Shown: positions 1-47,926 of the stretch, piece by piece
Position numbering within the stretch: position 1 is the first letter of the stretch
How the letters are laid out: every line of letters begins with the position of its first letter
The notes under the pieces: model-generated
Seen by the model: the letters and a program-made list of their open reading frames with translations, nothing else
Databases searched by the model: none
What the model was told of the DNA's origin: nothing
Translations under genes and position numbers: made by a program
DNA from: an uncultured bacterium
GTDB lineage: Bacteria > Patescibacteriota > Minisyncoccia > Phycocordibacterales > UBA11359
Direction of reading: 5' to 3'
Length of the DNA: 47,926 bases
NCBI GenBank assembly: GCA_903831815.1
Contig: CAIKZC010000003.1
Location: 1 to 47,926, forward strand

Positions 1-716
1 CGCCTAAGCGTCCAGAGCGACGGCGGAGTTCGGCACCTCGATGTCGGCTCATCTTATCCTGGGGGTGGAGAAGCTCCCAAGGGTATGGCTGTTCGCCATT
101 TAAAAAGATACGCGAGCTGGGTTCAGACCGTTAAGAAACGAAAATGCGGCGCAAGTGCGTCGCGTGGTTGGTTTTTTAACCGTCTGAATCCCGAGGTTAA
201 ATATATTAAGCAACACGATTTGATGTTGATCTGAATCACGGCGGTCGCAGAGAGAAATTTTTGCGATTGAAGTTGACTAAATTCGGTGGAGTCCTCCATG
301 AACGTGGCAGGATGATACCTAGGGAACCGCAAGGGCCCGTAGAGACTAAACGTCAACGATCTGATTTCAAAGCAATTTGAAAAGATTAAGCTATAGTCCA
401 ATACACACAGTAATGTGTGAACAATATGCGTGAGACAGGTTGGTCTCCTATCTACTGCAGGCGTTGATTCTTGAGGAGATTTCCTATTAGTACGAGAGGA
501 CCGTAGGGAACTGACCTCTGGTGTATCTGCTGTCTTGCCAAAGGCAACGCAGAGTAGCTATGTCGGGCACGGATAACTGCTGAAAGCATCTAAGCAGGAA
601 GCCGTCTCCAAGATTAGGAATCGTTATAGACCCCAGAGAGATGATCTGGTGATAGGCGTTAGGTGTACGCGCAGTAATGCGTTGAGCCAAGACGTACTAA
701 TTTGTCGATTCTTATT
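1..716 (+). rRNA. rrl: 23S rRNA, 3' portion (domains V-VI), partial at window start, interrupted by an intron at 132-428
   Basis: Conserved 23S strings read directly: GGCACCTCGATGTCGGCTC (35-53), CCAAGGGTATGGCTGTTCGCCATTTAAA (78-105), TACGCGAGCTGGGTTCAGA (109-127), then after the insert GTGAGACAGGTTGGTCTCCTATCT, TAGTACGAGAGGACC, GCTGAAAGCATCTAAG, and the 3' tail GCGTTGAGCCAAGACGTACTAAT. The 3' end is approximate (+/-10 nt). Confidence 0.9.
132..428 (+). ncRNA. Group I self-splicing intron (no ORF) inside 23S rRNA
   Basis: 297 nt interrupt an otherwise contiguous conserved 23S motif (GGGTTCAGACCGT | CGTGAGACAGG). The 5' exon ends in U131 and the intron ends in G428. P1 candidate is CCGU(128-131)/GCGG(146-149) with a U.G wobble at the splice site. 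Core AGACUAAACGUC (343-354) and CUAUAGUC (391-398) resemble the Tetrahymena J6/7-P7-P3 and P7' strands. P3 candidate is GUUGAC(282-287)/GUCAAC(352-357). There is a GCAA-tetraloop hairpin at 366-381. Confidence 0.8.
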
Positions 717-835
717 AGGAAATTTGAAAACCAATTATTGTTGTGCTCTGTTACATGGAATTATATCTGTCGACAACGACGGGGGAATTCCATATAGATG
801 TTTAAATGCCTAATAGTGGAAACACTTGTTCTTTT

Positions 836-908
836 GCCGGGATGGTCTAAATAAGGCGCCTGAATGCTATTCAGGAGATTTAGGTTCAAATCCTTTAGCC
901 CGGTACCA
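836..908 (+). tRNA. Atypical tRNA-like element (anticodon-loop AUGCUAU, i.e. GCU/Ser-type triplet, but class-I size, degenerate D and T arms, encoded ACCA end)
   Basis: Acceptor-like stem GCCGGG(836-841)/CCCGGU(899-904) followed by A-CCA. Anticodon arm CCUGA/AUGCUAU/UCAGG (859-875). T-loop TTCAAAT (885-891) closed by only 3 Watson-Crick pairs plus two U-U. D stem GUCU/AGGC has a 5-nt loop lacking GG. No long variable arm, although bacterial tRNA-Ser is class II. Confidence 0.35.
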
Positions 909-909
909 T

Positions 910-981
910 GCGTGAGTAGCTCAGCTGGCAGAGCATCTGGCTCAAACCAGAATGTCGGAGGTTCGATCCCTCTCTCGCGCT
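910..981 (+). tRNA. tRNA with good cloverleaf but a 6-nt anticodon loop (CUCAAA); isotype undetermined (CAA-like triplet on a class-I body)
   Basis: Acceptor GCGTGAG/CTCGCGC, D arm GCTC-AGCTGGCA-GAGC, anticodon stem TCTGG(936-940)/CCAGA(947-951), variable ATGTC, T arm GGAGG-TTCGATC-CCTCT, discriminator T981. Starts 1 nt after the preceding tRNA-like element. No encoded CCA. Confidence 0.6.
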
Positions 982-1097
982 TGCAGAGGATGCGAAACGA
1001 GTTGCAGAGCGAACAGCTACGTTTCGTTTGAAGTGTGGAGAAAGGCTGGTAAGCGCCATTCTCTCATTTCTTCGGGTCCCACGACGGCCTGAACCTT

Positions 1098-1134
1098 GAG
1101 AGGAAACTTCGCGGACCGCACGAAGTTTCCTCTC
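1098..1134 (+). other. Perfect 14-bp hairpin in the tRNA-5S spacer (possible processing stem)
   Basis: GAGAGGAAACTTCG (1098-1111), a 9-nt loop, then CGAAGTTTCCTCTC (1121-1134). No following T-run, so it is not a typical intrinsic terminator. Confidence 0.5.
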
Positions 1135-1171
1135 TACTATTAGTCATTTAAACATTTGATAATTGAATATT

Positions 1172-1283
1172 TTGTTCTGGTGATTTGTCGCGAGGGTCAC
1201 ACCTGTTCTCATTCCGAACACAGAAGTTAAGCCTCGTTGAAGCGATGATACCCTGGAGGGAAAGTAGCTAGTCGCCGGAACAA
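1172..1283 (+). rRNA. rrf: 5S rRNA
   Basis: Typical 5S strings CACCTGTTCTCATTCCGAACACAGAAGTTAAGC and CCTGGAGGGAAAGTAG. The terminal helix TGTTCTGG...CCGGAACA closes the molecule. Ends are approximate. Confidence 0.85.
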
Positions 1284-1298
1284 AGTATTTAATCTCGA

Positions 1299-1329
1299 AA
1301 AAGCACCTTTTTTAAGGTGTTTTTTCTTT
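1299..1329 (+). terminator. Rho-independent terminator after 5S rRNA
   Basis: Stem GCACCTT(1303-1309)/AAGGTGT(1314-1320) with a TTTT loop, followed by TTTTTTCTTTT. Confidence 0.5.
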
Positions 1330-1331
1330 TT

Positions 1332-1441
1332 AAAAGGAGCAAATGTGTTCGAGAAGCACTCCGCAGCGCGACTGGCGCGAGGATAAGGAAAAAGTCAGCA
1401 AGACTTTTTCCGTGTGATTCGAGAACATTTTTGCTCCTTTT
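1332..1441 (+). other. ~110-nt palindromic structured element of unknown function between 5S terminator and tRNA-Ile promoter
   Basis: Closing stem AAAAGGAGCAAA(1332-1343)/TTTGCTCCTTTT(1430-1441), extended by TGTTC/GAACA. The interior holds a perfect 10-bp hairpin GGAAAAAGTC-AGCAA-GACTTTTTCC (1387-1411) and a GC-rich GCGC...GCGC hairpin. Confidence 0.4.
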
Positions 1442-1455
1442 AAAAATATAAAAGC

Positions 1456-1484
1456 TTGTAAAAGTCACGATTTTCTGGTAATTT
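1456..1484 (+). promoter_or_regulatory. Candidate sigma70-type promoter for tRNA-Ile
   Basis: TTGTAA (1456-1461), a 17-nt spacer, then TG-extended -10 TGGTAATTT (1476-1484). The tRNA starts at 1494. Confidence 0.35.
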
Positions 1485-1493
1485 ATAACCCAC

Positions 1494-1567
1494 GGGCGTA
1501 TAGCTCAGGTGGTTAGAGCGCGTCACTGATAATGACGAGGTCCCAAGTTCAACTCTTGGTACGCCCA
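1494..1567 (+). tRNA. tRNA-Ile (anticodon GAU)
   Basis: Acceptor GGGCGTA/TACGCCC, D arm GCTC-AGGTGGTTA-GAGC, anticodon arm CGTCA-CTGATAA-TGACG, T arm CCAAG-TTCAACT-CTTGG, discriminator A. CCA is not encoded. Confidence 0.92.
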
Positions 1568-31212: not shown

Positions 31213-31241
31213 TTGACAAAATGGTCAAATGGGTGTATAAT
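31213..31241 (+). promoter_or_regulatory. Perfect-consensus sigma70 promoter
   Basis: TTGACA (31213-31218), a 17-nt spacer, then TATAAT (31236-31241) preceded by a TG. Confidence 0.65.
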
Positions 31242-31247
31242 ATACCC

Positions 31248-31392
31248 AGTTCTTTGATATTGCGAGATTCGCTATAGCAGAAAGCGGTTTTAAGATTTAA
31301 CCTGAAATAGAACCATTTTCTGCTGTAGCGAAACCAATGTGGCCAAGCTAGCAGCGATTCTGTAAAAACAGTCATACAAAAGGAGAAAAGTC
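31248..31392 (+). promoter_or_regulatory. ~145-nt structured 5' leader (riboswitch-like or attenuator-like, class unknown)
   Basis: A 15-bp helix TCGCTATAGCAGAAA / TTTCTGCTGTAGCGA (one G.U) encloses a GGTT...AACC hairpin. AGATTCGCT can alternatively pair with the downstream AGCGATTCT. Ends with a CTGT-AAAA-ACAG hairpin and a strong SD AAAGGAG 7 nt before the ATG. Confidence 0.45.
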
Positions 31393-32083
31393 ATGACTGA
31401 ACAACAGAGACCGAAGTTGGCCGGTGCTTTCGTTGAGCACCAAGACCGTTTCAGTGATTTGACCACCGAGGAAGCTCAGTGGGCAATTACGGATACGGCG
31501 TCGGCGATTGCTGTCTGTGTGGCGGCAATCAAGGTTGCGTTCGCTAAGGCGCACGGGGGCCCTCGAATTCATCTCGACTGTCGTTGTATCTGCAACCACC
31601 ACGAAGTTTGTCGCGAAAGATAAGTTCGTGGTCAACACCGGTGGCGATGATAATCGTGTGAGGATTTCTTTTATCGGGAGCAACTTCCGTGGCTGGTTCC
31701 TCGACAAAATCGAGGGTCCAATTACGGAACAGAAACTTCGCTACGCGAAGCTATTGAAATCCTCGGTGGACAGTCCGATCATCTCCGAACTCGGTGGCGA
31801 AGCGAAAGCTGAAACCACTCTGACGGAAATGTTCTCCCTCATGGAGAAGCAGAAGAATGGCAAAGCCGGAGTGTTGTTGACTAACGGCTACGCCAACATC
31901 TTCTACGTCAAGGACAACGCTGGTGTGCTTCGCGCGGTCGACGTGTACTGGAGCAGCGACGGTTGGGGCGTCAATGCGCGCTCCGTCGAGGGCCCGCGCG
32001 CTTGGTACGTTGGCTTTCAGGCGTTTTCCCGCAATCTTCTGTCCTCGAATCCTGCTGTCATTGCGGTTTCGCCGAAAGGCTGA
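31393..32083 (+). pseudogene. GC-rich orphan gene, apparently one ~230-codon reading frame split by a frameshift at a G5 run (31555-31559)
   Basis: Frame 1 (31393..31623) has the SD and ATG, but its last ~20 codons look like out-of-frame sequence. Frame 2 (to 32083) reads like a protein from ~31556 onward but has only a TTG with no RBS. Removing one G gives ...AKAHG-ALEFISTVVV... Confidence 0.6.
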
Positions 32084-32103
32084 CCCTCTGTCTCTTGGAT
32101 TCT

Positions 32104-32146
32104 CTGACCCTCATTCTGCTTCGGCGGATTGAGGGTCGGTTTTTTA
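32104..32146. terminator. Strong intrinsic terminator (potentially bidirectional, between convergent genes)
   Basis: GACCCTCA (32106-32113) / TGAGGGTC (32130-32137), extendable by 3 more pairs, followed by GGTTTTTTATTTT. The minus-strand gene ends at 32144. Confidence 0.65.
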
Positions 32147-41548: not shown

Positions 41549-44500
41549 ATGAATCTGTTTAAAACAACAAAACGTCTTTTTCTCGGAATGACCCTCATCA
41601 TTCCTTTGTTGTTCCTTGCTAACACCGTTTACGCCGATGGTGTCATCCTCCCAGATGAAAGCGGTACCACCACTATCACTACTTGTGGTGAACTAGCTTA
41701 CCCAGGTATTTACATTCTGGACGACTCCACCAACTCCTTTGACGCTACCGGCCCTTGCTTCACCATCTCCTCTCCCGGAGTCATCATTCAAAGTTCCGAA
41801 CTAGCTCTAGAAGGCGACATCAATGCCGATGCTACCACTACTCCCGGTCAAAACGGTTTCAGTTTCACTGTCGCCAGCACCACTTTAGATGGAGTTATTA
41901 CTTCCAATGGCGGCACCGGTGGCGCTTTTGGTACCACGACTTTTAGTGGGGATGCGGCTCTTGGAGGCATTGTTTATGGTAATGCCGCATTCAATGATCA
42001 AAGTCACTTTGTTGATCAAGGTTACAACTATGGTAACGTTATGTACAACGCCATTTTCAATACGAATTACTACGATCCAATTATCCCATCAAATGGCACG
42101 TTTAATATTAGTATTCATAATTGGCTTGCATATGTCTGGGGCACCACTTACGGCGCTGACAATCAGCCGATCAACGATTACGTTTTTAGTGGTACCATTT
42201 ACAATGGTGGTTATGCTCCCGGCAATATTACTTTCAATGATGACACTGTTAACCAAATGAGTGTGTACGGCCTCCCCCCAGGTTGGCCAAGTGTTATCAC
42301 TTTCACACCTCCAGCTGCGTCCGGATTACCGCCACAAGTTTTGACCTGGGATCCTGCTTTCGGAGAATGGCTTACTCCAAATGAAATTGATAATTCAAAT
42401 GATTGGAATTATATCAACGATGGTTTCGAAGCTTTTATTGGTGGCGAATATTTTGAAATTTATCACACCCTTGCCTCTAATGGAAATAGGGATTGGGACC
42501 TCTCAACCAATTTTACTTCATTTGATCAATTGACCAGTTCTTTATGGAGTGTTAGTGCAGACGATGCAAACTGGGGTAGTGATGGTATGCAGTGGCAAGG
42601 TACAGAATATTCGATTAAGGATGTTTTCAATGTAACTTTCAATGACTATAGTTCCAACCGAGCCTTTAATCAAGGTAGCACAATTTTTAACGATTCGAGC
42701 ACAAATCAAGCTAATTTAGTTGGCGATGTTACTTTCAATAGCTCGGTGGTCAACAGAAGTTATATTTATGGTCATGCTACTTTCAATGATTCAAGCCACA
42801 ATGCCAACAATGGTCACATAATCGGCACTGCTACTTTCAATGATTCAAGTTATAATCAAGGTCAAATAAACGGCACCACTACTTTCAACCCGACTGTTTC
42901 GAATTGGACGAAAGTACTTGGAATGGATTCAAATCAGTGGCAGTCGATAGCTTCAAATGCTACCGGAGATAAATTGGCTGCCGTTAATGATAGAGGTGAT
43001 GGCTCTATCTGGATGTCTTCTGACTATGGGGCAACTTGGACAGAGGCGACAACCAGTATTAGTGGATCATACTATTGGTATTCAATCACCTCAAACGTTG
43101 CAGGAGACAGGTTAGTTGCTATTGATGATAACGATGGCGGTTCCATCTGGGCGTATTCAACTTCAACGGGTGTTTGGATAATTGTTCCCGACACCGCTAT
43201 GGAAGGTGGTTGGACCTCAATTGCTTCAAATGCAACAGGAGACAGATTGGTTGCTTCGGAATATAATGGTGGTTCCATTTGGACTTCTTCAGATTGGGGT
43301 GCTCATTGGAATAAAGCAAACAATACTGATAATAATGGAGATTCCGAATGGAACTATGTTGCTTCTAACGCTGCAGGAGATAGATTGGTCGCGGTAGATT
43401 ATAATCGTTCCATCTGGACATCGGATAACTTTGGTGATTCATGGAAAGAAATCACCGGTGTTAATGGATTTAACTGGTATTCAATCACTTCAAATGTCGT
43501 CGGAGATAAGTTGGCTGCCGTTGAATATGACGGTTCCATCTGGACATCGTCTAACTATGGTGATGTTTGGACAAAAGTTCCAAACACTGTGGCTCAAGGT
43601 GGTTGGACCTCCATTGCTTCAAACTCTACAGGTGACAAGTTGGTGGCAGTTCAGGACGATGGTAACGGTGTTGGATCTATTTGGACTTCTTCAGATTACG
43701 GTGCTCATTGGGAGAAAAATTCCGGCACTCCTGGTAGATGGACTTCAATCGTTTCGAACGCCGCCGGTGATAGGTTAACGGCTGGAACTTTTAGTGATTA
43801 TAGAAATAACGGTTCCATCTGGACTCACGTTGACGGTCAAACTCCAACTTACTCTCAAAAAAGTTACAATACCGGAACCATAAGCGGTGACGCTATTTTC
43901 ACGTCACCGGTTTATTCATATAACAGTCATTTTGGTGATGGTGGTTTCAATCCACAAAATGGCACCGTAAGTGGTAACACATATTTCACACCGACTGGCA
44001 CTTCAACCATCACTTTCAACATTGGTACTTTGGGACAAGATGACACTTGTGGTGGATCTGCTTGTTCCTGGACAAGCGATCTTTCGGATTTTAACTTCGG
44101 CACTTCATCCATGATCTTCAATTTTTATGGAAATAGTTATAACGGTGGTTCTGCTACCGGCACCGCCAACTTTTTTGATGATAGTTATAATGGTGATCAA
44201 TACGGTAATTGTGTTTACGGAAATGCCTTTTTCAATGACCGAAGTTATAACGCTGAGAAAGGTGTAGTTGTAAATGATTCCACTTTCAAAACTACTTATT
44301 ACAGCACAACCACCCCTGCTAATGGAACATTTAATATTAGTTTAAATGATTTTGGTGGATATCTATATGGTACTATATACGGCTCTGACGGTCAGCCAAT
44401 CACCAATTATATTTTTAGTGGTGATATTGAGAATCGTGCAACTATCGGAAATATTTCTAATGGCGACAATTTTATTTTCAATGATAATAGTGTTAACCAT

Positions 44501-47500
44501 GGCAATATCGATGGTCTCCCGGTGGGTTGGCCAAGCGTCATTACTTTTACGCCTCCGGTCGCTTCCGGTTTGCCGCCGCAGACTTTGACATGGAATCCTG
44601 CCTATGAGGAATGGCTGACACCAGGCTTATGTGACAATCCTGAGGACTGGAATTATATTAATCCGGGATTTGAGGCATGGGTTGATGGAACTAGTTTTGA
44701 ATTAGTTGATGTTTCTGTCGAGGGAGACAACAATTATATTATTAAGTTATTCAGTCCTTCCTTTAGTAATATGTCCGGTAACTATACTATTCAGAAAGAT
44801 AATTTTAACTGGGGTGCTACTGGGATGAAAATTGAGGGCACCGGATATTCAGACAAATATGTTGCCAACGTAACTTTCAACAATGATAGTGATAATTATC
44901 AAAATATCGTGGGAGCCAACGTAACTTTTAATGACTCAAGTCATAACGGTGAAGGCAATATTTCTTATTCGAATATATTCTTTCGTGACAACAGCTTCAA
45001 CTCTAATGATATTAGTAACAATAATATTGATGTATACTATCCCGCAGTCAAACCTCTCGGTGGTATTATAATAGGCACTGTCCGTTACCACGGCTATCCA
45101 GGTTTCTATTTCAATGACCAAGCTGTCGGTGCCGCAGGGGACGGTGATTGGAACAATCCTCTCAATTGGTGGTCAGATGATGCTTTCATAACTCCGGCAG
45201 GTGGTATACCAACCGCTAGCGATGAAGTGTATGTGTATAGTAACGTCTCTACAAGTACCGGTATTACAGCGGCTGAAGCTCAAACTGTCACTTTTGAAAA
45301 CGGAACTAGAAATAATATTTCTATTATCACCCCGAATGGTGCTGTTTTCAATGCCACTTCAACTAACAATGGTGATATTACAGGCGATACCACTTTCACT
45401 GATGACGCCTCGAATAATAATGGAACAATAAATAGTACGCTGTGGACAATAGGTAAGGGTCCTGGAAATAGTATTGGATCTGTTGCTTCGAATGCCGCCG
45501 GAGACAGATTGGTTGCCACTGAGGACTATAATGGTTCCATTTGGACTTCTTCGAACTACGGTCTTGATTGGACCGAGGCCACAGGTACTAGCGGACATGT
45601 ATGGGGATCCGTTGCTTCGAATGCTGCCGGAAACAGATTAGTTGCCATAAATAAAGACAACGGTAGATCTATATGGTCATACTCAGATGCTTCCGGTATT
45701 TGGACAGAATTACCAGATACCAGAGGATTATTATGGTCATCAATTGCTTCAAATGCCGCCGGAGACAGGCTGGTTGCAGCTACTCAGCCTGGCAGTATCT
45801 GGGAATATTCAGATTCGACTGGTATTTGGACTGAAATGCCAGGTACAAGCGGACACAATTGGAATTCAATAACTTCAAACGCCGCCGGAGATCGATTGGC
45901 TGCTACAGCTTTTGATTCCATTTGGAAATATTCAGATGATACTGGTATTTGGGAAAGAATGTCTAGTCAAAATGCATTAGGATATTTGACATCTATTACA
46001 TCAAATTCCGTAGGAGATAGATTCGCTGCTGCAGATTTTTCTCATCGAACTATTTTTACATATTCTGATTCAGATGGGATGTGGAAACAAATACCTGGTG
46101 CTAATGGGAAAGATTGGGTCTCAATCGCTTCAAATGCCATCGGAGATAGATTAATTGCAGGAGCATCTTACGGTTTTATTTGGACTTCTTCAGATTATGG
46201 CGTTCATTGGACAAGAGCTTCTGGATTGGGTCCAGGTTACTGGTATTCGGTTGCTTCAAATGCAGCGGGAGATCGCTTGGTTGCAGAGGATGATAACAGT
46301 GGGGTATGGGTACATGAATTAAACGACAACTCCGGCCCCGTCACCCGTCTCTTCACCACTTCAGTCGCAACGGTAAGAAACTTCCTCACGGAAGGAGGAC
46401 GCAACAACTGGATAGTCATTGCTCAAAACGCCGTCGTCGATCTCACCAACGCCATCTACTCAAGAGTCACCAACATCTTTAAAGCACTTGGCAATGGTTG
46501 GTTCATCACTAACCCAACAATTGACAACGGCGCCTCAGTCACTCCGCAAATCACCATCACAAGTCCTACCGAAGGCACAGTGACTAAATGGCTACCTAAT
46601 ATCAACTGGGACACTGGCACCAGCACTTGCGAATACAAGCTAGACGACGCCAACTACACTCCACTCGATTGCACCAAGAACGGCTCTGACATTCCGAAAC
46701 CAACTGTCGGCTCACACATCCTCTTCATTCAAGGTATTGACTCTCTCGGCAACGCCACCGAAAAAACCGTTTCCTTCACATATGACAACACAGTGCCAAC
46801 CTACACTCTCTGCGGTACTGATCTACTCGACGAACCAACTCGTCCATACTACTACCTACAATCCAATATCACCGGCAACTGTTCTGCTACCTACAACAAC
46901 GCTTCTCTTCACGGCAACATCTCCGCAACTGGCACACCATATACTCTAACCGGCAACGTCTCTGCTCCAGGCCTTAATCTCTCACTAAGCAACATCATTG
47001 TTACCGGTTCAGTTTCTTCTTCTAAACTAAATACTCCAGGAACCAATGCCGGTAACCTCAACATCACATACTCCACAATCACTTCCATTACCGCAGACGG
47101 ATCCAATGGCAACAGTACTCTAAACGGCGGTAACGGCGGCAACATCACGATCGCAACCTCTACCACAGGCACTGTCTCTTCTAACGGTGGTGATCCACAA
47201 CACAACGGTGGAAATGGTGGAAGCATCACACTCATCAACACCAAGTCTATCTCTGACAACACACCGGTCAGTGCACAAGGTGGTGACTCGACTGGTTGCG
47301 GCTACGGCGGCTCCGGTGGTGACGTCATTCTTATCAATTCTTCGAGTTACATCATCCAAAACAACAAGGGAGCTGATCACGTCACCGGTTCATGCTCTCC
47401 AAGTGGACACGGTGGTCAAAACGGTACAAGTCACATTACCGGTACCTACACTCCACCCGGATATACACCTCCATCTACCCCTCGCGTTCCTTCTTCCAAC

Positions 47501-47926
47501 AACGGCGCCTCATATGCCAGCCCATTCTACTTCGGCTCCTCAACCTCTCTCATCCTTCCGGTTGCTAACGTCAAACCCCTCTCCCTTACCACACTCCCAA
47601 TCTTCAACGGCACTGGCATCAACGCCTTCTCATTTGATACCGCTATCAGAAACTTCATCTTCGCTCCAATCTCTTCCACTCTCACCAAATACCTTGGCAA
47701 ACAACTTTCTACCTATTTCACTAACCTCGGCCTCATCACTACCCAAGATCTCTTCAACACTCGCACCACACCACTTCCTCTCACTATCCCAGAGAAGAAA
47801 TCTGACATCCCAGACGGTTTACTTATGCTCTCCATCAACGGCACCTCAATCCCTACCACCGCCTCCTACGACAGCGCACACCTTCTAATCGAGAAAGCTT
47901 CCGTCCCATTTGGCTCACTCCTTACC
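41549..47926 (+). CDS. Giant secreted surface protein, 5' part only (>2126 codons, open at window end); not present in the supplied ORF track
   Basis: I translated frame 2 by hand from ATG 41549 to 47926 (6378 nt = 2126 codons) and found no in-frame stop. I re-checked the frame at more than 30 line boundaries. Signal peptide MNLFKTTKRLFLGMTLIIPLLFLANTVYA-DG. FND(S/D)S.N repeats, two blocks of seven Asp-box-like blades, and a Gly/Asn-rich C-terminal region are present. Confidence 0.88.
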   Translation, partial: MNLFKTTKRLFLGMTLIIPLLFLANTVYADGVILPDESGTTTITTCGELAYPGIYILDDSTNSFDATGPCFTISSPGVIIQSSELALEGDINADATTTPGQNGFSFTVASTTLDGVITSNGGTGGAFGTTTFSGDAALGGIVYGNAAFNDQSHFVDQGYNYGNVMYNAIFNTNYYDPIIPSNGTFNISIHNWLAYVWGTTYGADNQPINDYVFSGTIYNGGYAPGNITFNDDTVNQMSVYGLPPGWPSVITFTPPAASGLPPQVLTWDPAFGEWLTPNEIDNSNDWNYINDGFEAFIGGEYFEIYHTLASNGNRDWDLSTNFTSFDQLTSSLWSVSADDANWGSDGMQWQGTEYSIKDVFNVTFNDYSSNRAFNQGSTIFNDSSTNQANLVGDVTFNSSVVNRSYIYGHATFNDSSHNANNGHIIGTATFNDSSYNQGQINGTTTFNPTVSNWTKVLGMDSNQWQSIASNATGDKLAAVNDRGDGSIWMSSDYGATWTEATTSISGSYYWYSITSNVAGDRLVAIDDNDGGSIWAYSTSTGVWIIVPDTAMEGGWTSIASNATGDRLVASEYNGGSIWTSSDWGAHWNKANNTDNNGDSEWNYVASNAAGDRLVAVDYNRSIWTSDNFGDSWKEITGVNGFNWYSITSNVVGDKLAAVEYDGSIWTSSNYGDVWTKVPNTVAQGGWTSIASNSTGDKLVAVQDDGNGVGSIWTSSDYGAHWEKNSGTPGRWTSIVSNAAGDRLTAGTFSDYRNNGSIWTHVDGQTPTYSQKSYNTGTISGDAIFTSPVYSYNSHFGDGGFNPQNGTVSGNTYFTPTGTSTITFNIGTLGQDDTCGGSACSWTSDLSDFNFGTSSMIFNFYGNSYNGGSATGTANFFDDSYNGDQYGNCVYGNAFFNDRSYNAEKGVVVNDSTFKTTYYSTTTPANGTFNISLNDFGGYLYGTIYGSDGQPITNYIFSGDIENRATIGNISNGDNFIFNDNSVNHGNIDGLPVGWPSVITFTPPVASGLPPQTLTWNPAYEEWLTPGLCDNPEDWNYINPGFEAWVDGTSFELVDVSVEGDNNYIIKLFSPSFSNMSGNYTIQKDNFNWGATGMKIEGTGYSDKYVANVTFNNDSDNYQNIVGANVTFNDSSHNGEGNISYSNIFFRDNSFNSNDISNNNIDVYYPAVKPLGGIIIGTVRYHGYPGFYFNDQAVGAAGDGDWNNPLNWWSDDAFITPAGGIPTASDEVYVYSNVSTSTGITAAEAQTVTFENGTRNNISIITPNGAVFNATSTNNGDITGDTTFTDDASNNNGTINSTLWTIGKGPGNSIGSVASNAAGDRLVATEDYNGSIWTSSNYGLDWTEATGTSGHVWGSVASNAAGNRLVAINKDNGRSIWSYSDASGIWTELPDTRGLLWSSIASNAAGDRLVAATQPGSIWEYSDSTGIWTEMPGTSGHNWNSITSNAAGDRLAATAFDSIWKYSDDTGIWERMSSQNALGYLTSITSNSVGDRFAAADFSHRTIFTYSDSDGMWKQIPGANGKDWVSIASNAIGDRLIAGASYGFIWTSSDYGVHWTRASGLGPGYWYSVASNAAGDRLVAEDDNSGVWVHELNDNSGPVTRLFTTSVATVRNFLTEGGRNNWIVIAQNAVVDLTNAIYSRVTNIFKALGNGWFITNPTIDNGASVTPQITITSPTEGTVTKWLPNINWDTGTSTCEYKLDDANYTPLDCTKNGSDIPKPTVGSHILFIQGIDSLGNATEKTVSFTYDNTVPTYTLCGTDLLDEPTRPYYYLQSNITGNCSATYNNASLHGNISATGTPYTLTGNVSAPGLNLSLSNIIVTGSVSSSKLNTPGTNAGNLNITYSTITSITADGSNGNSTLNGGNGGNITIATSTTGTVSSNGGDPQHNGGNGGSITLINTKSISDNTPVSAQGGDSTGCGYGGSGGDVILINSSSYIIQNNKGADHVTGSCSPSGHGGQNGTSHITGTYTPPGYTPPSTPRVPSSNNGASYASPFYFGSSTSLILPVANVKPLSLTTLPIFNGTGINAFSFDTAIRNFIFAPISSTLTKYLGKQLSTYFTNLGLITTQDLFNTRTTPLPLTIPEKKSDIPDGLLMLSINGTSIPTTASYDSAHLLIEKASVPFGSLLT
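42930..43835 (+). repeat. Seven tandem Asp-box/BNR-like beta-propeller blades (propeller 1)
   Basis: Seven repeats of W.SI(A/T)SN..GD(K/R)L.A...(G)SIW(T)S.(D/N).G..W, e.g. SSDYGATW, SSDWGAHW, SDNFGDSW, SSNYGDVW, SSDYGAHW. Confidence 0.7.
45467..46320 (+). repeat. Seven tandem Asp-box/BNR-like beta-propeller blades (propeller 2)
   Basis: Seven repeats of the same consensus, e.g. SVASNAAGDRLVAT...SIWTSSNYGLDW, SIASNAAGDRLVAA...SIWEYSDSTGIW, SIASNAIGDRLIAG...IWTSSDYGVHW. Confidence 0.7.

Follow-up and report, generated by a model that had tools for sequence, protein, structure and literature searches.

What kind of gene lies at positions 31213 to 32146 of contig CAIKZC010000003.1, which stems from an uncultured bacterium of the Patescibacteriota? 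The stretch of DNA that was analysed, called the window in the following, is 47,926 nt long and represents the whole contig. A first-pass annotation, made from the sequence alone, had described the region as a self-contained, foreign-looking expression unit rich in guanine and cytosine (GC), i.e. an orphan gene with its own promoter, structured leader, Shine–Dalgarno (SD) sequence and terminator, which is split into two frames at a run of five Gs (G5). Our analyses indicate that the region very probably is a stand-alone (“solo”) target-gene cassette of a lineage of diversity-generating retroelements (DGRs) confined to Patescibacteria, i.e. the CPR (candidate phyla radiation), and that it was frameshifted by a genuine insertion of one G. 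The apparent GC-rich orphan would thus become interpretable as a retroelement-diversified gene copy that is detached from its retroelement.

The interrupted gene comprises two overlapping open reading frames (ORFs), ORF1 at 31393–31623 (76 aa) and ORF2 in the +1 frame at 31508–32083. Removal of one G fuses them, as had been proposed, and yields a single protein of 229 aa, which turned out to be a full-length member of a large family. A search of a collection of 5.8 billion protein clusters with the repaired protein retrieved 610 proteins at E ≤ 0.01. The homologues are 50–71% identical to the query, cover 93–98% of it, have lengths of 215–245 aa, and every one of them is encoded by a single ORF. 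Those with a name are annotated as “hypothetical” and belong to Patescibacteria. The family size, at least 610 protein clusters of the Patescibacteria (CPR), is a lower bound. A scan of GTDB with one genome per species revealed 189 family loci, nearly all of them in metagenome-assembled genomes (MAGs) of Patescibacteria. The gene is therefore not an orphan, but has at least 610 homologous clusters of predicted DGR variable proteins. Scans of the repaired protein against Pfam, PHROGs, PADLOC and NCBIfam returned nothing meaningful. Within the family, the N-terminal ~55 residues are modular, i.e. three unrelated N-terminal types are found on the same core.

The gene neighbourhoods of the homologues link the family to DGRs. 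Downstream of the gene at two related loci (L007 and L009) lie, in this order, a short repeat of the gene's 3′ end that encodes an Asn-rich peptide (DNAGVLRAVNVNWNDDGWNVNANSVENPNRWNDGNQVFSRN), an Avd-like ORF on the opposite strand, and a reverse transcriptase (RT) with a YADD motif. At three further loci (L086–L088), Pfam hits name the neighbours of the gene as bAvd (PF22296) and RVT_1 (PF00078). A DGR-type RT is encoded 0.8–1.5 kb downstream in 40 of 81 family loci, and 45 gene copies are followed by a template repeat (TR), giving 45 pairs of a TR and a variable region (VR). Across the family, the TR base is adenine at 760 of the 833 mismatches within these pairs. At the level of the family, the differences between TR and VR are thus adenine-specific, and members do have TR and RT partners. 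Because the family neighbours TR, bAvd and RT genes and the mismatches sit on adenines, the gene of the window is predicted to be a DGR variable-protein (target) gene, with its VR at 31913–32034.

The VR of the window aligns without gaps to TRs of other genomes, with 77% identity to the best of them, and 18 of the 28 mismatches are located at TR adenines. The encoded C-terminus (…NAGVLRAVDVYWSSDGWGVNARSVEGPRAWYVGFQAFSRN), for which the first-pass annotation could name no family, departs from the TR peptide at Asn (AAC) positions and would represent the DGR variable region. VRs of the family end in TTCTCYCGCAAT, and the end hexamer is CGCAAT in 59 of 62 VRs versus CGAAAC in 31 of 40 TRs. The adenine content of the VR is 12%, compared to 25% in TRs. 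As the VR is diversified, depleted of adenine, and carries the VR-type 3′ boundary, the gene is or was a substrate of a DGR.

In complete elements of this lineage, the promoter is followed by the structured leader, the SD motif, the variable-protein gene (the VR being at the C-terminal end), the terminator hairpin, the TR, bAvd in opposite orientation, and the RT. The RT copies the RNA of the TR and misreads adenines, and the cDNA overwrites the VR, whereby the Asn (AAC) codons of the TR turn into random codons in the protein. The unit in the window appears to be a solo target copy, i.e. the stretch from promoter to terminator that forms the first half of a complete element, because the contig holds no TR and no RT. 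Neither blastn with the VR nor a pattern that allows the VR base or A at each position (≤3 mismatches) detected a TR in the 47.9-kb contig, although at four control loci the cognate TR was retrieved with this pattern. A tblastn search with the RT of L007 gave nothing below E = 1.8 in the window. When the degenerate pattern was applied to JGI metagenome contigs, neither the VR nor a TR was matched; as even the VR remained unmatched, the organism is not in that collection. A TR is likewise missing after about 25 further copies of the family for which 2.4 kb or more of downstream sequence are available, and roughly one third of the family copies are solo. In some MAGs, a complete element is accompanied by a single solo copy (L004/L054 and L071/L076). 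A tandem arrangement was observed at L082 (3243–5087), where two target paralogues share a common C-terminal tail (…SRNSALESSATAAA) and each has its own leader; no RT was found within 6 kb downstream of these solo copies. Further diversification of the window gene would require a TR and an RT elsewhere in the genome.

The break of the reading frame distinguishes the window gene from its relatives. An alignment with 23 homologues (A1) places the break at AHG|ALEF, i.e. at the G5 run. Eight contigs from at least seven samples and three assembly types (scaffold-based, megahit and Logan) were compared with the window. Six of the eight are 100% identical to it across the cassette, including G5 and the whole VR, and the contig L213 differs by two runs of N only and ends inside the VR. 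No heterogeneity in the length of the G run was found among the eight contigs, which all have G5. As the same allele is present across samples and assembly types, the extra G is a real insertion that has become fixed in the population sampled. The frameshift is present in no homologue, neither in the 23-sequence alignment nor among the full-length tblastn matches, which are all single segments, and the insertion is thus lineage-specific. As the remainder of the gene is undamaged, the insertion either occurred recently or has left some function in place. Inactivation or splitting of the protein is its most likely consequence, with simple inactivation rated highest. Apart from the runs of N, the only differences between a sampled contig and the window are two A-to-C changes in L001, a short megahit contig, at positions 1391 and 1417 (corresponding to 32034 and 32060 of the window). 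Both lie in its final 55 nt, and the former affects the codon that closes the VR; errors at the contig end, strain variation or adenine-specific changes are possible origins.

The first-pass annotation had offered a homopolymer sequencing error as one explanation for the break, and programmed or phase-variable frameshifting as another. Homopolymer frameshifts are a common artefact, and the rest of the gene is undamaged and has kept all invariant family residues, which fits an organism with an intact gene. However, 11 contigs from NCBI, ENA and Logan encode precisely the ORF1 product, including the tail that is out of frame, the eight compared contigs match the window across the G run irrespective of the assembly type, and no intact allele with more than 71% identity exists among the 5.8 billion protein clusters. 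In addition, a run of five bases is short for a systematic error of the Illumina type, and an error in sequencing or assembly has very little chance of being the explanation. A functional frameshift, i.e. a +1 ribosomal slip of tRNA-Gly on GGG-G or a reversible phase-variable switch, is unlikely. It would be in accord with the fully intact downstream frame, with the fixation of the allele across samples without further decay, and with the fact that a one-base forward slip on G GGG G restores the family sequence AHG-ALEF. The run and the change of frame are, however, found in no homologue (the closest one reads AKAHRILEF), and the features of a +1 site of the prfB type are lacking, i.e. the next codon in the 0 frame is GGC and the first stop lies 63 nt downstream, so that the A-site would hold neither a stop nor an obviously slow codon. 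Phase variation is further contradicted by the single tract length in all eight contigs, and G5 is shorter than typical contingency tracts. The gene might also have been split into two products, a 76-aa helical N-terminal protein and a C-terminal VR domain translated from GTG 31631 or TTG 31508. The modularity of the N-terminus, with its three unrelated types, and the start of the conserved core just past the break are compatible with such a split, and gene callers predict a product of 151 aa from GTG 31631. We nevertheless regard it as quite improbable, because GTG 31631 is not preceded by a good SD motif, no homologue has this organization, and the 151-aa product would lose the first core strand (LEFISTVVVSATT, residues 57–69; strand 57–65 in the structural model).

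It could also be argued that the gene is an ordinary acquired orphan without any link to a retroelement, and that it resembles DGR targets by shared ancestry, but was never diversified itself. The contig without TR or RT and the invariance of the VR among samples would agree with this, and several further observations weigh against the interpretation of the region as a frameshifted DGR target. When the VR is compared with the best foreign TR, ten of 28 mismatches fall outside adenines; as this TR is non-cognate, such mismatches are expected, yet the adenine signature is only indirect for the window copy. The VR is identical in its entirety in six of the eight sampled contigs, and at the consensus level there is no sign of ongoing diversification. 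Current activity of a DGR on the gene is unproven, because no cognate TR or RT was found in the 47.9-kb contig. ORF2 has kept every invariant residue of the family, and a function that persists via low-level frameshifting or as a split protein is a minority possibility in each case. Lastly, the C-type-lectin fold that is usual for DGR targets is not demonstrated by the AlphaFold2 model. The model, based on an alignment of 24 sequences, has a pLDDT of 81 and predicts an N-terminal helical bundle followed by an α/β core, the last four strands of which carry the VR. Foldseek revealed no significant match in the PDB (best E = 0.75) or BFVD (best E = 0.24). The only lectin-like matches were weak, namely 3whd (E = 1.0) and the herpesvirus protein UL45 (E = 0.33), and PDB sequences yielded nothing in a profile search with the repaired protein. 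An origin without a retroelement is nonetheless very unlikely in our opinion. The differences from the TR consensus sit at Asn/adenine positions, the VR is depleted of adenine like other VRs, the VR-specific boundary and the 3′ module have been kept, and solo copies accompany complete elements in other genomes. Retron msr/msd, a type III toxin–antitoxin system, an OMEGA/TnpB guide RNA, and an integron attC site were also considered and were dropped given the TR/RT context of the homologues. They are disfavoured additionally by the lack of an RT, nuclease or integrase in the window, and by the G–U pairs of the leader hairpin, which denote RNA of the sense strand.

The solo DGR cassette proposed here brings along its own expression signals. 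The perfect promoter that had been claimed is indeed present and is the only perfect TTGACA-17-TATAAT match in the window, while none was found in 100 shuffled sequences. The −35 and −10 boxes are kept upstream of homologous genes at other loci (alignment A2), and transcription would start near 31248. The strong SD motif was likewise substantiated: among the 29 large ORFs of the window, only the cassette gene has a canonical SD, and one further ORF has a bare GGAG. Translation in the host thus seems to be initiated largely without SDs. A GGAG-like motif is missing in the 20 nt before the first ATG in 27 of the 29 large ORFs, the upstream regions of which are A/T-rich; the first ATG was taken as start codon in this survey, and a few starts are possibly misplaced.

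The GC content of the cassette gene is 54.3% (65% at third codon positions), compared to a mean of 40.9% in the window (standard deviation 3.8%, windows of equal size), and the cassette represents the maximum of the window. The description as a self-contained, compositionally deviating unit is thus correct. In contrast, a recent acquisition, which had been listed as an option, does not follow from this, because high GC characterizes the family as a whole. The GC content of family genes averages 53.9% versus 42.6% in their upstream flanks, the gene surpasses its flank by over 5 points at 62 of 75 loci, and this holds for hosts with GC contents from 28 to 58%. Therefore, the high GC content is no evidence of a recent transfer, and GC alone does not date the acquisition. 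The foreign composition is explained by a family that keeps its own GC content, promoter and SD across these hosts, i.e. high GC, consensus promoter and SD travel with the cassette family, in contrast to the SD-less genes of the host. The loss of adenine in the VR adds a local GC peak near 31900–32000. The second-highest GC content of the window is found in a patch of ~51% near 46900–47300, inside a very large ORF (>2126 aa) at 41549–47926, which runs off the window end. At the other end of the window, the 3′ end of the 23S rRNA (model positions 2489–2925, 437 nt) is spread over 721 nt, and the ~280 extra nt are possibly an insertion or intron.

Table 1. Features of the proposed solo DGR target cassette and of the rRNA/tRNA region in the window (positions refer to the 47,926-nt contig)
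Feature	Position	Strand	Description
σ70-type promoter	31213–31241	+	TTGACA 31213–31218, 17-nt spacer, TATAAT 31236–31241; 12/12 consensus positions
Structured 5′ leader	31248–31392	+	5′ end AGTTCTTTGATATTGCGAG, P1, small hairpin 31334–31342, conserved segment 31343–31356
Leader hairpin P1	31268–31332	+	5′ arm 31268–31292, 3′ arm 31308–31332; apical part variable
Alternative-pairing segment	31347–31356	+	GCTAGCAGCG; resembles P1 5′ arm, could pair with 3′ arm
Shine–Dalgarno AAGGAG	31380–31385	+	7 nt before ATG 31393, read from the sequence
Predicted DGR variable-protein (target) gene, interrupted	31393–32083	+	ORF1 31393–31623; +1 frame from 31560 to stop 32081–32083
G5 run with extra G (+1 frameshift mutation)	31555–31559	+	Frame break relative to homologues
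Predicted variable region (VR)	31913–32034	+	Encodes DNAGVLRAVDVYWSSDGWGVNARSVEGPRAWYVGFQAFSRN; gap-free alignment to related TRs
VR 3′ boundary, similar to an initiation of mutagenic homing (IMH) sequence	32024–32035	+	TTTTCCCGCAAT; VR-type end CGCAAT
Conserved 3′ module	32084–32146	+	Degenerate repeats (GACCCTCTG / TCTCTTGGA / TTCTCTGACCCTC), hairpin 32104–32139, T-run
rRNA/tRNA order	1–1567		23S, tRNA 910–981, 5S 1176–1280, tRNA 1494–1567

The presence or absence of the cassette in relatives had been proposed as a check of its acquisition. The nearest relative found (L216, 5001–10935) is Taylorbacteria-like, with 67% identity in the neighbouring DUF6938 protein. Its gene order is lysS, cls, two unrelated genes (one of 304 aa, and a glycosyl-hydrolase-like one of 334 aa) and DUF6938, i.e. 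the lysS-cls … DUF6938 backbone exists there without the cassette, which fits an acquisition. At L086 (6001–8493; also L087 and L088), a complete DGR cassette with target gene, bAvd on the minus strand and RT is inserted into a ribosomal protein operon, between the genes for L5 and S14; comparable cases are described in PMC5758913. The insert in the ribosomal operon and the other genes at the corresponding site of the Taylorbacteria-like relative support mobility of the cassette.

The strong terminator of the first-pass annotation was recovered as well. The hairpin in the 3′ module has a folding energy of −26.8 kcal/mol (z = −5.3) and is followed by a T-run. The base of the hairpin, GACCCT…GGGGTC, is conserved and its inner stem covaries, and 11 of its 14 consensus pairs exhibit compensatory changes. 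The non-coding 3′ tail is kept at the nucleotide level in about 40 loci. As the T-run follows and U–G pairs are conserved, the hairpin is at least an RNA terminator; together with the T-run it is certainly an intrinsic terminator. By analogy to other DGRs, it may in addition be a hairpin for target recognition. In related loci (e.g. L007, 5024–5070), each TR also precedes a conserved hairpin, CTCCYCGGC…GYCGGGGAG followed by TTTT. This hairpin is distinct from the one behind the VR, and the bAvd gene converges on it from the opposite strand.

The leader upstream of the gene was analysed by folding, covariation and database searches. A stable leader of ~145 nt is predicted, as had been claimed (−47.4 kcal/mol, z = −4.9), but its main helix is a dominating hairpin of 17 + 7 bp (P1) and thus longer than the 15 bp claimed. 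A covariance model (R1) matches the window at 31239–31359 with 87.7 bits, and upstream of family genes nucleotide conservation starts at the −35 box. In an alignment of 30 sequences, P1 has 19 consensus pairs, 96.5% of the cells are paired, and 12 pairs show compensatory changes. None of 500 shuffles reached the observed values, and slid controls were 37–52% paired. With 100 sequences, the paired fraction was 97.1%, with 234 double-change cells, and thus covariation is strong for P1 in both alignments. The conserved G–U pairs, and sense scores much higher than antisense scores (103 versus 33 bits for L007), indicate that the leader is an RNA of the sense (coding) strand. It is characterized by a conserved 5′ end, an invariant G–U pair, and an internal loop in the long hairpin. 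Rfam 15 contains no matching leader family, and with thresholds relaxed to E ≤ 10 nothing beyond chance hits was obtained; the best score was 28.8 bits to a yeast small nucleolar RNA model, which has a gathering score of 50, and all other hits had E > 0.3.

An alternative pairing that excludes P1 had also been postulated, and it is weakly supported. The outer three pairs of the segment at 31347–31356 covary (AGC:GCT, GAT:ATC, GAC:GTC and GGC:GCC), with 21 double changes in one pair, but the alternative helix as a whole is 54% paired, which equals the shuffle mean. In an alignment-free test, the segment was found in 39 of 100 sequences versus 29.8 ± 2.7 for permuted arms, a value that was reached by 2 of 1000 permutations. 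The pairing of the segment with the 3′ arm of P1 is thus suggestive only.

To describe the distribution of the leader, R1 was applied to 663 kb of family loci. Leaders were found directly upstream of target genes only, and in front of both copies where two exist. The one exception is L019, where a leader precedes a different gene of 212 aa. This second leader (L019 2284–3077, 97.6 bits) lies before a gene ending in ...GGRWLNACCVDGPGYGWFREDGFAFVVSQVGPQN, which directly follows a transposase-like ORF of 416 aa and may represent another target family. An unbiased scan of metagenome contigs with a leader pattern yielded at least 120 loci, and ~90 of the first 100 are full-length matches of the model. 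Among the matches listed, the family of the window follows the leader in only 12 of 124 instances (tblastn), and where 2.8 kb or more of downstream sequence are available (43 instances), a DGR RT is encoded within 4 kb in 15 cases. Among the same matches, a downstream repeat pair is present in 33 of 124 instances, the downstream copy having adenine at 511 of 605 mismatches, and 81 of 105 proteins encoded after the leader fall into three clusters, each with TR- and RT-adjacent members. These values suggest that the leader hairpin is common to several DGR target families of the CPR. It is found with at least three sequence-unrelated clusters of target proteins, and solo copies, including that of the window, have retained it.

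The leader most likely acts on the mRNA, i.e. via stability, processing or the binding of a regulator. A further reading, which is possible but doubtful, is that the ~110-nt leader represents a class of structured RNAs not described before and is a working part of the DGR systems of Patescibacteria, and not a mere untranslated region (UTR). It could then be a binding site that couples expression of the target gene to the RT/Avd machinery, or that marks recipient genes, including solo copies. The leader is not mentioned in the literature on DGRs and RNA motifs that was searched, with the full text of Paul et al. 2017 outside the coverage, and it is possibly undescribed. It is in any case a candidate for an unrecognized cis element of DGR targets, in a phylum that is rich in DGRs and in which the functions of the targets are obscure. 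Solo copies are seemingly common, comprising about one third of the family, and, as Roux et al. 2021 (PMC8144416) concede, they escape surveys in which an RT must lie next to the target.

How does the cassette compare with known systems? In the mtd gene of Bordetella phage BPP-1, an IMH is accompanied by a downstream GC-rich inverted repeat (Guo et al. 2011, PMC3240598, as reported via PMC5758913). As in BPP-1, VR and TR of the window family differ in a short 3′ boundary sequence (CGCAAT versus CGAAAC), and behind the VR there is a conserved GC-rich hairpin that the TR does not have in this form. In contrast to BPP-1, the hairpin of the window lies ~70 nt beyond the end of the VR and not immediately after it, and in the window family it has a T-run and conserved U–G pairs; a role in homing is putative. 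The DGR of Treponema denticola has seven non-adjacent targets (PMC5758913, PMC4891356). The window shares with it a VR-bearing gene away from TR and RT with preserved 3′ recognition elements, and therefore one RT/TR could serve the target in trans; in contrast to T. denticola, a cognate TR was not identified. Targets at distances of more than 100 kb have been reported only for Lineage 4 and neighbouring DGRs, not for CPR (PMC5758913). Structured RNA motifs linked to DGRs were detected by covariation in 2017, adjacent to the RT gene (PMC5737381). The leader of the window is likewise a DGR-linked structured RNA found by covariation; it differs from these motifs by its location in the 5′ UTR of the target gene, its retention in solo copies, and the lack of a match in Rfam 15.

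The closest counterparts are the DGRs of the CPR, for which PMC5758913 and PMC8144416 cite Paul et al. 2017 as the first description. Wu et al. 2017 (PMC5758913) defined a “CPR set” and the VR classes UVR1–6, left most CPR VRs as “unknown”, and noted ribosomal protein genes beside CPR DGR genes. Roux et al. 2021 (PMC8144416) described DGR clade 2 and clade-2 targets without recognizable domains. The lack of significant structural matches for the window protein is in line with both studies. The window copy differs from these systems in having neither TR nor RT within 47.9 kb and in being frameshifted, and the DGR literature searched makes no mention of a conserved 5′ leader. It shares with them the host group, a small target protein without recognizable domains, a C-terminal VR, Asn-rich TRs, adenine-specific differences between TR and VR, and, in related loci, bAvd and RT beside the target gene.

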